NCBI GenBank assembly: GCA_963759805.1 | Contig: CAVXAT010000005.1 | Coordinates: 32,001 to 96,000 of the forward strand | From: an uncultured bacterium | GTDB taxonomy: Bacteria; Babelota; Babeliae; Babelales; RVW-14 | Length of the DNA stretch: 64,000 nucleotides | Direction: 5' to 3' | In this document: positions 42,001 through 48,000 of the stretch, piece after piece | Layout of the letters: every line of letters begins with the position of its first letter | Numbering within the stretch: the stretch's first letter is position 1 | Made by a program: the position numbers

Positions 42001-45000
42001 GAAGACCTCGAATCCATTGAATTAGAAAAAGCATTTCCTTATGTTATTGTTTGGCTAAAAAGATACAAAAATGAGGAGGGGAAGTTACAAAAAAATAGTA
42101 CCACCATACCTTTTGAAAACCAAATCAATCTAAAACATGTAACCAAATCATTAAAATATAATCTAATTGCTTTTGTAGTTCAAAGCGGCAGTACCGGCGA
42201 AGGCCACTACTGGGCTTACGGAAAGGATAAAGATGATAAATGGTGGCGATATAATGACCCAAACGTAACCGACGCTTCGATAGAAGACGATGACAAAAAA
42301 AGCATTAAGGATATCTTCGAAACTGGCCTAGATCGCAATAAAGCAACCCCTTACGTTCTCTTCTATGAACTTGAAGAACCACTTAGTCTACTCAAGTCAT
42401 CATTGCAGAAACTTAAAACAAAAGTGGAAATGTTGCAAGAGAAGTTGGGAACGCTGAGGGGTAAATTGGGATAGAAAATAAAAAATTAAGTGGAGGCGAT
42501 GGGATTTGAACCCATGTCCGTAATACCCAGCTCTTCGAGCACTACATGCTTAGTTCTTATTTATACTTCTACTATGCTGCAAGAACACAGGACAAGTAAA
42601 AGCCGGTTCAGTATACAATCCGGATACACTACCAAAAAGTCTTTCCAGAAGGTTCTATCTGATTATACGTGTATGCTAGGCTGATAGACACGTCCGCATA
42701 CAAGCCATAGATGCCCTACTTAATTAAGCAGCTGCAACTAAAGGACTACTCACATTGGAATAGTTTGCATTTATGTTTTTGAACGTTGATTAACGAGTTC
42801 CATTCAAAACTCGGCATGCTCTCAAAGCTCTTGACACTACGTCGAAGCCAACACGCCCCCAAATTTTTCAAAGATCAAAAGATTATAATAAATATAAGTA
42901 TAATTATATAAGTATATTTTCTATGTGTCAACAATAGCCCAAATTCAAAAAACAGGTCTTATCGGCTTAAAACCCACCTTTTAACCCCAAAAAACAGAGT
43001 AAATTAGACTTTGCAGACTGATTATGTAAACTATCTGTAATTAATACAAATTTTATAACTCTAAAAACTAAGGTTTTTTTATTAAGGGTCTTTTATGAGT
43101 AAGAAAAGTACAATTTTCACCCTAGGCCTTGCCACATTCACAATGTTTTTTGGGGCAGGCAACGTCGTATTCCCACTCAGTCTTGGCAGAGATATGGGGA
43201 ATATGGTTTTTTATGCAATCCTAGGCTTTTTTGCAACGGCAATTTTTGTTCCGCTACTTGGCCTAATTTCAGTAATGCTTTTTGAAGGCGATTATAAAAA
43301 ATTCTTATCTACGATGGGGACAATTCCTGCAAGCTTGATCGCTCTTGTCTGCATGATTTTACTAGGCCCATTCGGATGCATAGCTCGCTGCATCGTTCTT
43401 TCATACTCTGCAATTCAGTGGCATCTTCCAAATATATCACTGTTTACCTACAGCTTGATCGCATCTATTTTTGTGTTTTTGGTAACACAGAATAAAGGCA
43501 GAATCGTCAATCTGCTTGGCAAATATCTTGGACCTGTAAAATTAACATTACTGCTTTCGGTTATAGCAGTCGGACTTATTTCTCCATTTATGATGGAGCC
43601 AACAACATTCACTGCCGGACAGAGTTTTATGCGCGGTTTTAATGATGGTTACTTCACAATGGATCTGATCGGAGCACTATTTTTCTCAATGTTAATTTAC
43701 ACCGCATTGAAAAAAATGTTGTCTGAAGAAGGGAAGACGTCAACAAAAGATTTAATCGTTTATGGTATAAAATCAAGTCTTATCGGTGGTGGGTTGCTCG
43801 GAATCGTCTACCTTGGCTTTTGTACAATTTCCGCAATGTACGGCCCACACATCCATGGAATTGGAAGAGATCAAATCTTAAGTGCTTTGACAACCAAAAT
43901 CCTTGGCCATGGTGCCGGAATTCTTGCCAACGCCACCGTTGCAATCACATGCTTAACAACAGCAATTGCATTAACAACGGTCTTTGCCGATTACCTGGCA
44001 CATGAACTTACAAAGTCTAAAATTCGTTACCCTTATGCACTTTTAATAACAACAGTTATCACATTTGCAATGTCCAATCTCGGTTTTGAGGGAATTATGA
44101 ATTTTGTTGAACCGATAATTGTTGTGCTTTATCCTGCTCTTATAGTTTTATGCTTAGCAAATATTGCCAATAAACTCTTTGGTTTTAAATACATTAAGCT
44201 TGTTGTCTTTTCATCTTTGATTGCAAGTTTGGTTCTCAATTATGGACAAGCAATTGCAGGCCTGATGATCAAATGAACTTTAAATAGCTTAATTCTTAAA
44301 TTTTGACAGGCAGGGCGCTAAAAATGCTCTGCCTGTTTTATTATAAGTTACGGCAAAAACCATCAATTTATATAAACCATGTACTATTTTAAGTTGATTT
44401 TAATAAATTTAATAAAATTAACAGAATTTAATTAAAGAAAAATTTAATTTAAAGAGAGGGTACTCTATGAAGTTTGTTAAGGCTATTTTATTAATATTTT
44501 TAATTACAACATCTTTATCTCCGATGAAAAAGCCTGGTAAAAGCGTCATGCCAACGAAAAAGCCTGGTAAAATTGTCGTACCTGTGAAAAAGCCTAAAAG
44601 TGTCGCGCCAATAAAAAAACCTAAAAGTGTCGCGCCTGTAAAAAAACCTAAAAGTGTTGTGCCTGTAAAAAAACCTAAAAGTGAATTGCAAGTTAAATTG
44701 GAACAACTAAAATCACCCTTGGCCGAATTAAGAACCAAGTTAATGAAATTGCAGGAAAAGCTTGAGTCTTTGAGAATATTTCTAGACCCGGTAACCGAAG
44801 AAAATATCTGGGATAAAATAAAAAACTTGATACAAAACCAAAATGGTAATGAATTTAATCTTAAGCCAGAAATAATCGATGAATGGATGTTGCTTGACAA
44901 TCAACTCGGTACATTAAAAACTGATATGACTAAAATCAAAAATGATATTGTAATCGACAATGAATATTTTAAAGGAATTAGATTAGCAGATTATGCACCT

Positions 45001-48000
45001 GTTTTATATGCATTTGGAGATGATGTAAATAAAAGCAACGAAAGAGCCGTAATGCTCTTTAAACGTTTATGTGAAAAGGTAACACCTATCATATTGGATA
45101 CAACTCCAAAATCTTGCAATTCTATAGGCAAACGAATAGAACAACTAGAAACTCATCATGCCGGTATGATTGGATTCTTCGCAAGGAAAAATGCAGACAA
45201 AAGAATACAAGACCTTTATAACAAAAAACACGACCAGCTTAATATCGTGTCTAAATTAATTGATGAAATAAAAATAGGAATGTTCAATAGATTGCAAGAG
45301 GTATTTTTTTATTTATATAAAGGATACACATACAAAAATCAAATGGGTGCCCCAACGCCTATATCTATTATCGACGCTAATATTGCAAACAAAAAAGCAC
45401 TCATTGAAAACTTTGCACTACAATTTAACAGAGGGTTTGATGTTATTGATAAAGTATTTATTAATAGTTTTAGCGTTTGGCGTTACACGTTTGCAGGACA
45501 GCATAACATAGATGATATTGATTCAGGGGGAATACGAAGAGTTGCTATTTCCGACCTTGCTGCTTACTATAATTCGAAAGCAGAAGAAAATGGATTTGAT
45601 AATAATGCAACTCGTGAAGCATTTCCAAAACTCATCTGGTTTCTGCTTGCAAATATGTTCAAACCAAGCCGCGACTCTCTTTTAATCCAGGCTTGGAACA
45701 ACAATCATGATGTACAATTTGATGGGTTTTCTGCAATCATAAATCTCCCACTGCCATTTTGGGGCACATTGCTATCTCAAGGCTCACTTGAGATTTCTGA
45801 AGATGATACGAAAAACGTGTTTACAGAACTTGGTATGCAAGGTGCAATAGTAGGCAACCTAAAAGATGCCTTAGGTTGCGATACAGACAAAGAAACCATT
45901 GATGAATTAAATAAAAAGATCAAACTTAAGGATAAATACATTCAAGCACTCAAATTAAACAAGATCCTTTCGTTTGAGGATAAAGTAAAAAACATGCTCA
46001 GCCGATATTTAGCCTCAAAATATCACATAGATGAGATCAAAAAAGACTTCTGGCAGGATGCCAACCTCGTAAATTTAAGACGGGATGCAGGTGTGGATGA
46101 AGACACCTTATTATCAACCGGCGCATTTCTTGATAATAACGAAATTCAACGCCATCTGAATAATGGCAACGTACAGTTTTTACTCATGAGGAAGTTTCTT
46201 AAAGAATTAAATTCTCAACACTTGTTCAATATGTTTAATAAACCACCAATGGCTCAAGAAATTAAAGATATGATTGTTGAAGGAGTTAGACAGAATAGAT
46301 ATGCTATCAGTTCAGAAGTGACTGATGCAATCACCCTATCAGAAACATTCATAAGGGATTTATTCGCAAGAAAACGATTAGAGCTACAGGCTAACAGCAC
46401 AGATCCCTCCCTCCAAGCACAAGTTTTGATACTCAAAGCAATTGTATGGACTTTTAACTTTATCAACGAAAATGCTGGTGATGAAAAAGAACAAATAGAT
46501 ATTCGTACTGGATTTGTAAAATTTGTTACTGGTCAATCACGCCCAGCATATATGGTAGTCACTACACAAACAATTGGAAACTTAGAAGCTCATACCTGCT
46601 TTAAAACGATAAACATTCCTGAGCAGTTGCTACAAGCAGATGATTATAATTCATTCAAAATCGCTCTTATAGGTGTTGTAAAGTAAAAAAAGGCATGCAG
46701 AATTAAGATTTACCAACAGCCAATCTAGATCTGGCTAATTTTTATCTTTTTATCTCCAAACATTGACGAATTTTGCAATATCAGGCATCTTCTGAATGTT
46801 TTAATAGGCAATTTTCCAAGGGTTATTTTAAATATTTTATTTTAATATGGGCTGATTCTATGAAACTCTCGCTTGCATGGATATTCGATCACATTAATGC
46901 GGACTGGAAAAAACAGGATATAGATCAAATTTTTTCAAAATTTAATACCACAACAGCCGAAATTGAAGATTTTCATAAACTGAAAATCGACTTGCAAAAC
47001 TTCTTTCTTGGGAAAATTGTTGCAAGCACCAATAATAAAATAATTTTTTTGGTGCCGGAGTTAAAAAAAGAGATTGAGTTGGCGCAACCCCAAGCGCAAA
47101 CCGATGGGACTTTTACACATACCCCAAATCCTGTTGTCCCAAATCCTATCTTAATGATCAAAAAAGTTAATGGCGTTTTTTACTGGGCAAATTTAGTTGA
47201 TTTTGGAATGGAAAAGGACGGCCTCTTACCTGCATTTGATATAAAAGAGGAAGATCTGTCCGGAAACTGGCGCAATCAATTTGAAAACGAAGACATCATT
47301 CTTGAAATCGACAACAAATCAATCACACACAGACCGGATATGTGGGGGCACAGGGGCTTTGCTCGAGAAATTGCCATGATTATGGATCTACCATTTAAAG
47401 AACAATCTGAATTTTTAAAAGATATTCCAGTGCAGTGCTTTGATGGTCAAAGTAGAGCAACACAAACTAATCCAATCACAATCGAAAATCAGGCACCTGA
47501 AGGCTGCAAAAGATTCACAGGGCTTTATTTTAAATCAATTGAAAACAGACCATCCAACATTTTTATTGCAAGCAGGCTGCTCAAAATTGGGCAACGACCA
47601 ATTAATGGAATAATAGATCTAACAAACTACATTGCCCAAGAGTGGGCACAGCCCGTTCATGCTTATGACACAGAAAAAATTACAGACAAAAAAATCATTA
47701 TTAGATTAGCTAAAAAAGGCGAAAAGATTGAGCTCCTGGACGGAAATAGCATCGAACTAACCAATCACGACATGGTCATCGCAGACAGTAAACATGCAAT
47801 GTGCTTGGCAGGAGTCAGAGGTGGGATAAGCAGTGCTATAAGCGGCGCAACAAACTCTATCCTTTTTGAATCGGCAACCTTTGATGCCGGGACGGTTCGA
47901 CGCAGCGCCTTAAGACACAAAACCCGCACCGACTCTTCTGCAAGATTTGAGAAAACACTTGATCCAAACCAAACAACTCAAGCAACCCAAAGATTTTTGA

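Follow-up and report, generated by a model that had tools for sequence, protein, structure and literature searches.

A 2026 review states that bacterial counterparts of the HECT, RBR, RCR, and RZ ubiquitin ligases "have not yet been identified" and that unrelated mimics evolved instead, among them the HECT-like effectors SopA and NleL (PMC13720258); the survey's finding had quoted these words exactly. The claim that bacteria have no HECT so far has one weak precedent against it. Legionella MavJ (Lpg2498) was described as "remotely similar" to E6AP on the basis of HHpred, with auto-ubiquitylation in transfected cells (PMC5819833). MavJ is named 0 times in the review (PMC13720258). Babela massiliensis has been described as exploiting host ubiquitin with F-box and RING proteins and three secreted C19/USP peptidases (PMC4378268). 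A literature search, with subscription papers mostly outside it, found no HECT in Dependentiae and no sequence-related bacterial HECT except MavJ.

The 64,000-nucleotide stretch of Babelota DNA analyzed here (the window) encodes a divergent HECT protein, referred to as the target. Like the eukaryotic HECT ligases (PF00632; UBR5, Rsp5/NEDD4, SMURF1/2, UBE3C, HUWE1/Tom1, and E6AP), the target carries its domain at the C terminus. The order of D-x-G-G, L-x-x-P-x-x-F, F-x-T-G, and H-T-C-F is unchanged, and a helix precedes the N-lobe, as in PMC9547173. Unlike the eukaryotic ligases, the target is encoded by a bacterial gene, has a signal-peptide-like start and helical inserts, and is only 10 to 20% identical in sequence. 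Its loop from T-G to H-T-C is 22 residues long, compared with mostly 32 to 40, and both the tail with Phe at position -4 and the known eukaryotic substrate-binding domains are missing. The target would share with SopA and NleL a probable role as a host-directed Cys-thioester E3 from a bacterium, whereas its family is related to eukaryotic HECTs by sequence and fold; neither it nor its relatives gave a SopA-family Pfam match at E values up to 1 to 10. MavJ is likewise a bacterial effector of a protist parasite, with a reported remote likeness to E6AP. The HECTs of giant viruses (Pithovirus, Fadolivirus, Tupanvirus, and Clandestinovirus; IMG/VR loci L062-L072) are also divergent and carried by protist parasites, but they form a separate group in trees, and nothing closely related to the target's branch was found in viral contigs. 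The Babela massiliensis toolkit comes from the same phylum and follows the same inferred strategy with secreted eukaryote-type ubiquitin enzymes, although the paper describing it mentions HECT, IBR, and RBR 0 times (PMC4378268).

Gene and genomic neighborhood

The open reading frame reported by the survey is real: it begins with ATG, is preceded by a Shine-Dalgarno-like sequence, and lies inside a 131-kb bacterial contig of a 21-contig assembly (Table 1). Its GC content (0.342) and GC3 (0.29) fall at the 12th and 24th percentiles when compared with 662 long ORFs from the same genome. A similar hydrophobic N-terminal stretch, judged by hydropathy and not by a dedicated predictor, was found in 11 of 11 family genes with the N terminus present. 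The linker that follows is missing from the relative P0002. Matches to the heptad "tag" number 11 among 1,950 genome ORFs versus 6 among reversed ORFs, a weak statistic, and phmmer with the tag alone retrieved only the target. The USP-type deubiquitinase encoded upstream has a signal-peptide-like start, Cys and His boxes, and the same tag at its C-terminal end. In a second genome, G151, synteny and motifs identify a counterpart of this USP domain fused to HECT, and the HECT orthologue lies 3' of the same MscS gene as in the target's genome (71% identity).

Table 1. Features of the HECT locus, in window coordinates
Feature	Position	Strand	Evidence or remark
USP-type deubiquitinase gene, 552 aa	40816..42474	+	Pfam UCH E 3.7e-29
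tmRNA gene	42490..42860	-	ARAGORN; between USP and brnQ
Branched-chain amino-acid transporter gene, brnQ-like	43095..44276	+	Pfam E 2.4e-64
Terminator-like hairpin	44305-44337		After brnQ-like gene
Shine-Dalgarno-like GAGAGGG	44454..44460	+	6 nt upstream of ATG; read from sequence
Divergent HECT protein gene	44467..46686	+	739 aa; ATG start
Signal-peptide-like N terminus, residues 1-20	44467..44526	+	Hydropathy 2.96 over 11 residues
Lys/Pro/Val-rich linker, residues 21-72	44527..44682	+	About six 9-10-residue repeats; sequence
34-residue Leu/Lys heptad "tag"	44683..44784	+	Common to other putatively secreted proteins of the genome
Long helix, residues ~244-284	45196..45318	+	Putatively at place of HECT alpha-1 helix; model helix 15-55; alignment
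N-lobe D-S-G-G, residues 352-355	45520..45531	+	Aligns with canonical D-x-G-G (profile-profile)
L-P-L-P-F-W, residues 427-432	45745..45762	+	Matches canonical N-lobe L-x-x-P-x-x-F-Y (profile-profile)
HECT C-lobe, residues ~590-739	46234..46683	+	Predicted model, pLDDT 66-96
F-V-T-G, residues 686-689	46522..46533	+	G689 invariant in 12/12 family sequences
H-T-C-F, residues 709-712	46591..46602	+	Putative catalytic Cys711; Cys invariant 12/12
pheT, bacterial housekeeping gene	46773..49265	+	Four PheT Pfam domains; 87 nt 3' of HECT gene

The target's genome has 4 USP domains, 12 RING matches, and 3 secretins but, at 89% completeness, no match to ThiF/E1, E2, or ubiquitin. A control for ThiF/E1 matched 14 of 14 genomes; the E2 control matched none. 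With this gene content, the likely site of action of the protein is the protist host.

Evidence for HECT homology

All of the motifs named by the survey are present (DSGG at residue 352, FVTG at 686, and HTCF at 709 to 712), with Cys711 located 28 residues from the C terminus. The C-lobe pattern F-x-x-F-x-T/S-G ... H-T/S-C is as rare as reported, with the target its single match among 1,950 six-frame ORFs of the genome; the bare word HTCF occurs in 2 of 1,950. When the family profile was compared with PDB sequences, the HTCF of the target aligned with that of SMURF1/2 and Pub2. The survey had called both the His and the Cys invariant, and this holds for the Cys (12 of 12 sequences), while the His is kept in only 10 of 12. 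Similarly, D-x-x-G is found in all 11 family sequences that reach the N-lobe, and the D-x-G-G form present in the target is found in 7 of these. P428 is nearly invariant in the family alignment, and K/R-x-x-x-F is conserved within the helix at residues ~244 to 284. This helix is the putative counterpart of the HECT alpha-1 helix; wide structural alignments begin at model residues 9 to 35.

As the survey had acknowledged, the target alone, whole or cut, gives no Pfam HECT match (PF00632; curated cutoff, 23.9 bits). A PF00632 search of its own genome was negative as well, no HECT was found for it by PDB phmmer, an HMM of 30 canonical HECTs placed it at E 1.5, outside the top 8 of 1,950 genome ORFs, and an HMM of 39 canonical and viral HECTs also failed to match it. 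The cut domains of G156 (35.7 bits, E 9.8e-9) and G146 (27.6 bits) pass the Pfam cutoff. With an HMM built from the 8 members outside its branch, the target ranked first of 1,950 genome ORFs (E 9.4e-13; next, E 0.075). When the HMM was built from just the six tail-bearing members, the target's match fell to E 0.15, so the link between target and family leans on G156 and G119. By hhalign, the family matched 30 canonical HECTs with a probability of 98.3 over 325 columns, and the target's branch alone matched them with 81 to 83 over 72 columns; the branch matched the other members at 98.75, and these matched the canonical HECTs at 98.74. Controls for each alignment (one reversed and 19 block-shuffled) reached at most 33. 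HECT ligases made up 7 of 10 and 7 of 9 matches of the family profile to PDB sequences, at weak E values (0.012 and 0.037). The ESM Atlas search with residues 330 to 739 was repeated with the outcome first described (29 of 30 matches HECT; best score, 0.90); these matches share 141 to 152 of 256 features, versus 170 typical of same-family matches. Residues 108 to 335 gave Atlas leads that were all under 0.9.

An AlphaFold2 model was built from 12 bacterial sequences with templates excluded. The C-lobe reached a pLDDT of up to 96, the whole model had a pLDDT of 64 and a pTM of 0.61, and much of the N-lobe lay under 50, with the E2-binding subdomain of low confidence. Among the Foldseek matches listed for this model, 45 of 45 were HECT entries (best, SMURF2, E 3.2e-4), at low TM-scores of 0.13 to 0.32. 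In a wide structure search, ranks 1 to 18 were HECTs for both the target model (Z 13.6 to 6.1; first non-HECT, 5.0) and the G156 model (Z 12.8 to 9.0; next, 6.5), and SopA and NleL chains were absent from the best 50 matches of each search. The modeled C-lobe superimposed on those of UBR5, HUWE1, and ITCH with an rmsd of 1.9 to 2.6 Å over 90 to 93 residues. Two-lobe alignments covered 237 to 327 residues at 4.2 to 8.9 Å, the N-lobe being of low confidence and its small subdomain aligning poorly. Together, the profile-profile alignments, the leave-out HMM, the Pfam matches of relatives, and the structure searches support descent from eukaryotic HECT, on much firmer ground than the survey had, and we hold the HECT homology and fold of the target to be very probable. 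The survey's word "canonical" is overstated for a protein with no -4 Phe tail and a low-confidence E2-binding subdomain.

The bacterial family and its C-terminal tail

The family consists of 12 sequences. Two of them are metagenome proteins, and the others come from 9 of the 261 genomes of the phylum; relatives are labeled Ca. Babeliales. Its distribution is patchy, with members in 2 of 4 genomes of the target's own genus. The target retrieved P0007, the G156 ORF, at E 2.6e-15 from 1.84 billion proteins. Pfam UCH confirmed the USP-HECT fusions that had been reported, in P0003 (E 2.5e-36) and in the giant P0007 (E 2.2e-7); the RING-like Cys cluster also ascribed to P0007 is visible in the sequence but has no RING match in Pfam. 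Across 50% divergence within the family, the active-site region has preserved its Cys, Thr/Ser, and Gly. The copies in G153 to G155 adjoin nusA/infB-like genes, and in that of G153 the domain is preceded by an in-frame stop.

A PF00632 search over the phylum gave matches in 16 of 261 genomes, and 5 were retained (G146 and G153 to G156). The G199 match was rejected as a DEAD-box helicase; it scored 29.9 bits, so the Pfam cutoff is not fail-safe. We also rejected the G030 match, which had no BLAST link to the family, and set aside an ORF on contig C12 of G044, in which a HECT-like end was not seen. The remaining matches, short or interrupted by stops, were left out, as was a match in G087 (E 0.004; 42 positions). 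Three Rhizobium loci (75 to 89 residues, E ~3e-4 among candidates only) were taken as chance. Pfam HECT matched neither G142 nor G119. When longer relatives of the G156 domain were sought, the domain itself was the sole result. Viral contigs held no relative of the family and no match to two HECT patterns, and trees did not name the donor of the HECT domain.

The tail bearing the -4 Phe is missing from the target and its four closest relatives, that is, from 5 of 5 members of the G000/G156 branch (G000 being the target's genome). In these proteins the last C-lobe helix forms the C-terminal end, and the C-lobe has a branch-specific helical insert of ~40 to 55 residues. All 6 members of the other branch have Phe at the equivalent position, and 29 of 30 canonical HECTs have it at -4; several giant-virus HECTs likewise end without it. 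Salvat et al. reportedly found in 2004 that some HECTs require the -4 Phe to transfer ubiquitin to substrates. E6AP lacking Phe849 or its last four residues still formed the thioester and di-ubiquitin, with poor chain elongation and loss of K48 specificity (PMC6463701).

Proposed role and alternative explanations

On balance, we favor as a good bet the explanation that the target is an old eukaryote-derived HECT that is secreted and ubiquitinates proteins in the protist host. The domain would have been inherited long ago, its donor being a eukaryote or one of the giant viruses of eukaryotes, and would then have diverged within the Babelota/Dependentiae, intracellular parasites of protists. Judging from its N terminus, the protein is probably secreted, with Sec exporting it and a type II system probably carrying it across the outer membrane. 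In the host cytosol, it would borrow host E1, E2, and ubiquitin: the N-lobe would bind E2~Ub, ubiquitin would be loaded onto Cys711 as a thioester, and the acceptors would be host proteins or proteins located on the bacterial vacuole. Since the branch is without the tail and its -4 Phe, the product would most likely be single ubiquitins or short, linkage-loose chains and not long, specific ones. With HECTs beside, or fused to, USP deubiquitinases, the two activities may jointly edit ubiquitin marks.

The missing tail could also mark a HECT-derived decoy or trap that binds E2~Ub or loads Cys711, transfers poorly, and drains or blocks host E2s. The uniform absence of tail and Phe in the branch, unlike the other branch and nearly all canonical HECTs, the extra C-lobe helical insert, and the reported requirement for the -4 Phe in some HECTs favor this reading. 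We nevertheless regard it as unlikely: tail-less E6AP still makes di-ubiquitin (PMC6463701), the active-site residues are kept despite deep divergence, and giant-virus HECTs without the Phe also exist. Very long branches and the remodeled N-lobe small subdomain and C-lobe might instead reflect changed chemistry, that is, transfer of another ubiquitin-like modifier or ubiquitination of non-lysine acceptors (lipids or sugars) at the vacuole. Nothing positive speaks for another modifier, and fusion to, or clustering with, USP-type deubiquitinases points to ubiquitin itself, making this decidedly improbable. The clustering of USP and HECT genes could also belong to an endogenous ubiquitin-like system inside the bacterium. 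We give this explanation very little credence, as 11 of 11 family genes have signal-peptide-like starts and G000 gave no match to ThiF/E1, E2, or ubiquitin (89% complete; E2 control matched nowhere).

That the protein is not a HECT at all, but a helical protein whose motifs arose by chance or convergence, with AlphaFold drawn to a memorized fold, is a reading we consider largely refuted and most improbable. It would account for the lack of a direct match for the target alone (Pfam, PDB phmmer, and canonical HMM) and for an Atlas score that is borderline and rests on few shared features, and helical models may reach Z 13 by chance. Against it stand four motifs that keep the order and spacing of HECTs in 11 to 12 sequences, profile evidence from sequence that is independent of AlphaFold, and two models whose top 18 matches each fall in one family with a gap below. 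Misassembly or misbinning of eukaryotic or giant-virus DNA is scarcely credible. The assembly is in 21 contigs; no RNA run was listed as containing the stretch, and the one outside DNA run contained short pieces of a related strain, none bridging the HECT gene to pheT. The gene is nonetheless intron free, has a ribosome-binding site and host-like GC, and lies on a 131-kb contig between brnQ, tmRNA, and pheT; relatives are absent from viral contigs, the G153 to G155 copies sit beside nusA/infB-like genes, and the G151 synteny at the MscS gene refutes the idea.

Beyond the secreted HECT preferred here for the target, a broader proposal stands at about even chances: that the Babelota/Dependentiae have active secreted members of two eukaryotic transthiolating E3 classes, HECT (9 of 261 genomes) and RBR (IBR, 46 of 261), that one old HECT acquisition split into tail-bearing and tail-less branches, that ubiquitin ligation by the tail-less branch does not depend on the -4 Phe, and that some members are single-chain USP-HECT editors. 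Such fusions would be write-and-erase enzymes on one chain, and what the HECT C-terminal tail does can readily be compared between natural tail-less and tail-bearing members. Bacterial co-option of true HECTs can now be tested at the bench with ordinary reagents, and the family shows how protist hosts may be taken over by a phylum of parasites that is abundant but has scarcely been studied. By descent, the family is a direct counterexample to the HECT statement of the 2026 review, and the same window adds an RBR.

The RBR ligase encoded within the window is complete, and the IBR domain was found in 46 of 261 genomes of the phylum.

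The HECT-like gene and its relatives

The ORF of the 739-aa HECT-like protein is intact, with a Shine-Dalgarno-like site 6 nt 5' of its start. Its motifs begin at residues 352 (DSGG), 686 (FVTG) and 709 (HTCF), the first of them where the survey's finding had placed it, and Cys711, the putative catalytic residue also given there, lies 28 residues from the C-terminal end. The C-lobe pattern, claimed to be unique in the genome, matched this one ORF among 1,950 six-frame ORFs, and a repeat of the Atlas search again gave 29 of 30 matches to HECT clusters at a score of 0.90, with a low shared-feature count (141 to 152). 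When the protein was searched alone, no HECT match was obtained in Pfam, as had been reported, or among PDB sequences, and an HMM of 30 canonical HECT domains gave E 1.5, which is no match. The question is therefore whether the motif match reflects homology.

The gene is flanked by MurE, RecO, MscS, USP, tmRNA, brnQ, pheT and lspA, in a 1.5-Mb genome of 21 contigs (89% complete, 0.8% contaminated). Its GC and GC3 contents fall at the 12th and 24th percentiles of 662 long ORFs. In a genome of the same genus (G151), an orthologue lies downstream of the same MscS gene, at 71% identity, within a run of USP genes, and two proteins from genomes of the same family carry the source label Candidatus Babeliales. 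Contamination as the source of the gene is very unlikely, its probability being close to nil.

A phmmer search of 1.84 billion representatives returned seven matches. Five were relatives (P0002, P0003, P0005, P0006 and P0007); two overlapped the Lys/Pro repeat only. Across the phylum, the same query matched 3 of 261 genomes and PF00632 matched 16, from which G146 and G153 to G156 were retained. A 10-sequence profile independently reached two further members, in G142 and G119. The resulting 12-sequence profile had strong matches in nine genomes, by construction (8 of the 35 in the same family and 1 in another), and added nothing to these across the 261 except a weak 42-position match in G087. 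A hydrophobic N-terminal stretch is present in all 11 genes whose N terminus is available. The survey's USP fusions were upheld, in the USP-HECT protein of G151 (UCH E 2.5e-36) and in G156 (Gln-rich-USP-Cys cluster-HECT; UCH E 2.2e-7), but the Cys cluster it had called RING-like has no Pfam RING match. The G119 member joins HEAT-like repeats to HECT, and others have helical N termini without annotation.

Homology to HECT ligases

Domains cut from the relatives were scored against Pfam HECT (cut-off, 23.9 bits). G156 reached 35.7 bits (E 9.8e-9), in an alignment that includes the Cys and covers model positions 166 to 299 of 306, and G146 reached 27.6 bits; G154 and both G155 copies fell below the cut-off, at 17.6 to 21.9 bits, and the domains of the target and of G151 gave no score. 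A DEAD-box helicase of G199 (L024:5524-7281) passed the cut-off with 29.9 bits and is a false positive. Since the cut-off alone is thus no proof, an independent reference set was built. Metagenome contigs were scanned by pattern, which yielded 118 stretches; 80 loci were listed, and the 30 with a complete uninterrupted HECT domain, presumed eukaryotic, formed the canonical set.

With hhalign, the 12-member family aligned to the canonical set at a probability of 98.3 over 325 colinear columns, and the four-sequence target branch alone reached 81, over the C-lobe; controls (reversed plus 19 block-shuffled versions of each alignment) stayed at or below 33. The target branch matched the other eight members (98.75, 408 columns), which in turn matched the canonical set (98.74, 288 columns). 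An HMM of those eight ranked the target first of 1,950 ORFs (E 9.4e-13). When only the six tail-bearing members were aligned, the probability was 10.6 and the target, still ranked first, had E 0.15; G156 and G119 therefore carry the bridge. Of the PDB sequences that family profiles matched, 7 of 10 and 7 of 9 were HECT ligases, with weak best E values of 0.012 and 0.037.

An AlphaFold2 model of residues 230 to 739 was built from the 12 sequences of the family, all bacterial or metagenomic, with neither templates nor eukaryotic rows (mean pLDDT 64, pTM 0.61; 66 to 96 over the C-terminal 150 residues, below 50 in much of the N-lobe). All 45 PDB rows listed by Foldseek were HECT entries (best, SMURF2, E 3.2e-4), with low TM-scores. 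In a wide search of 48,161 chains, HECTs held ranks 1 to 18, including UBR5 (Z 13.6, 327 residues aligned at rmsd 7.2 A), UBE3C (Z 11.5, 237 residues at 4.2 A) and isolated C-lobes (Z 8 to 9.3, 1.9 to 3.0 A, 90 to 96 residues), and the first unrelated chain had Z 5.0. Because chance alone can bring a helical model to Z 13, we place weight on the one-family ranking and the gap beneath it. A model of G156 (pLDDT 57) likewise placed HECTs at ranks 1 to 18 (Z 12.8 to 9.0; next chain, 6.5). In a viral structure library, annotated giant-virus HECTs ranked 1, 4 and 9, none with E below 0.001. The HECT alpha-1 helix is described in passages of PMC9547173.

Profile-profile, HMM, cut-domain and structure searches thus support the claim that the protein descends from HECT, and it is predicted to work like one. 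It lacks the Pfam score and the Phe at -4 of a strict HECT member; that it is not a HECT at all has only a slim chance of being correct.

Conserved residues, the missing tail and proposed activity

All 12 sequences have the Cys, the Gly of F-x-T-G, a hinge Phe and a Lys in the last helix, and D-x-x-G is kept in 11 of 11. The His, earlier called invariant together with the Cys from five sequences, is kept in 10 of 12. The closest relatives of the target have a helical C-lobe insert of about 40 to 55 residues. Phe occurs at -4 in 29 of 30 canonical domains and at the equivalent place in 6 of 6 members of the second family branch. The target, P0002, G151, P0005 and G156 end 26 to 29 residues past the Cys, with no equivalent Phe; since five sequences end in this way, an error of assembly is ruled out. 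The missing tail is the main departure of the target branch from canonical HECT; the survey's word "canonical" thus goes too far, though the homology is supported. Four giant-virus HECT genes (L066, L069, L070 and L071), each followed directly by a ubiquitin gene, also encode HECTs without Phe at -4.

In E6AP, according to passages of PMC6463701, the formation of thioester and di-ubiquitin survives either F849A or removal of the four C-terminal residues; what suffers is chain elongation and K48 specificity. Tail loss in the target therefore predicts altered, not necessarily absent, activity. Babelota/Dependentiae live inside protists as parasites or symbionts and have many proteins with Sec signals (PMC6561590, PMC12172432), and their type II secretion system is conserved (PMC4776705). 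We consider it probable that the protein is exported by Sec as an effector, would borrow host E1, E2 and ubiquitin, would form a ubiquitin thioester on Cys711 and would mono- or short-chain-ubiquitinate host or vacuole proteins, with USPs working alongside. The genome encodes three USP genes, one of which is a tandem double USP, so that there are four USP domains in all; it also has 12 RING matches and 3 secretins.

The protein might instead trap E2 or ubiquitin, which we regard as unlikely, or be a HECT descendant with changed chemistry, which seems quite improbable. Membership in an endogenous system is extremely improbable: searches of this 89%-complete genome for ThiF/E1, E2 and ubiquitin gave no match, with the E2 control itself matching nowhere.

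The trees drew on 11 rows from the family, which excluded P0005, together with 29 distinct canonical and 8 distinct viral rows. In a quick mixture-model tree, one branch separated the family from the other rows (SH-aLRT 89), and a careful LG+G4 tree, after removal of five of the eight viral rows, gave 99/93. Because both trees have meeting long branches, unnamed reference rows and no root, they are compatible with a single old HECT acquisition and name no donor.

A 34-residue Leu/Lys heptad tag ends the USP two genes upstream and starts the target; in G151 it lies at the USP-HECT junction. The two copies have 30 of 102 bases in common and the closest match to the fused G151 USP is another USP, so it is not demonstrated that the genes simply fused or split apart recently. 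The tag lies mostly directly after a signal peptide or at the extreme C terminus, recurs in seven further ORFs beyond those tabulated (11 matches versus 6 in a reversed control), and is possibly a secretion or assembly tag.

An RBR ligase, published precedents and other features

The RBR ORF in the window, which is a minimal RBR, matches ARIH1 (E 2.4e-15, residues 24 to 212); its catalytic-Cys motif is intact, and the following His is replaced by Lys. Of the 261 genomes of the phylum, 46 have IBR-family matches, 45 of them above the cut-off, with several copies in some, against 0 of 14 controls; the Rcat motif with Cys is present in 10 of the 12 best loci. The RBR, as a further case, supports uptake of eukaryotic transthiolating ligases by the phylum.

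HECT is a eukaryotic innovation according to passages of PMC4327156, those of PMC11354881 list SopA/NleL and no other bacterial ligases of the kind, and those of a 2026 review (PMC13720258) state that bacterial RBRs, like HECTs, have not been identified. Our literature searches returned no report of the present family. The idea of a first bacterial HECT is weakened by Legionella MavJ, for which passages of PMC5819833, repeated in PMC7542358, report a remote HHpred similarity to E6AP together with auto-ubiquitylation in cells. Passages of PMC3673628 and PMC5220581 add nothing on prokaryotic HECT. Those of the Babela genome paper (PMC4378268) report F-box, RING and secreted USP proteins and do not mention HECT, IBR or RBR. 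Bacterial USPs have been described as rare.

Features of the genome and one relative (window positions unless a contig or locus is named)
Feature	Position	Strand	Remarks
HECT-like protein	44467-46686	+	
Heptad tag in HECT-like protein	44683-44784		
USP-type deubiquitinase	40816-42474	+	heptad tag at end
USP-type deubiquitinase	C2:55051-57126		
USP-type deubiquitinase	C10:7427-8374		
tmRNA	42490-42860	-	tag ANYSNVSSPLVAAA; between USP and brnQ
ORF	52832-55417		heptad tag at end
1204-aa protein	14847-18461	-	lysophospholipase/PLA2_B E 5.7e-22; heptad tag at start
Ankyrin-repeat and cyclin-fold protein	12268-13350	-	signal-peptide-like start; Pfam Cyclin E 3.1e-15
710-aa ORF at window edge	6-2138	+	weak RickCE-like (CE-clan protease) match, E 0.0064
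RBR ORF, 220 aa	5575-6237	-	signal-peptide-like start; full RING1-IBR-Rcat module
Second RBR copy (L202)	C1:355420-355770		
Adhesin-like gene	7322-10469		apparently split by transposase ORF; read from translations
IS3-type transposase ORF	7981-8901		
Tandem paralogues	60501-63987	+	at least five genes of 219-264 aa; signal-peptide-like starts; common EKWQ motif
HECT family copy in G153	L026:4333-7194		one in-frame TAA between N-terminal region and HECT domain

By its domains, the ankyrin-cyclin protein is a possible host cell-cycle effector, and the 710-aa edge ORF is perhaps akin to the Babela ATPase-Ulp1 proteins.
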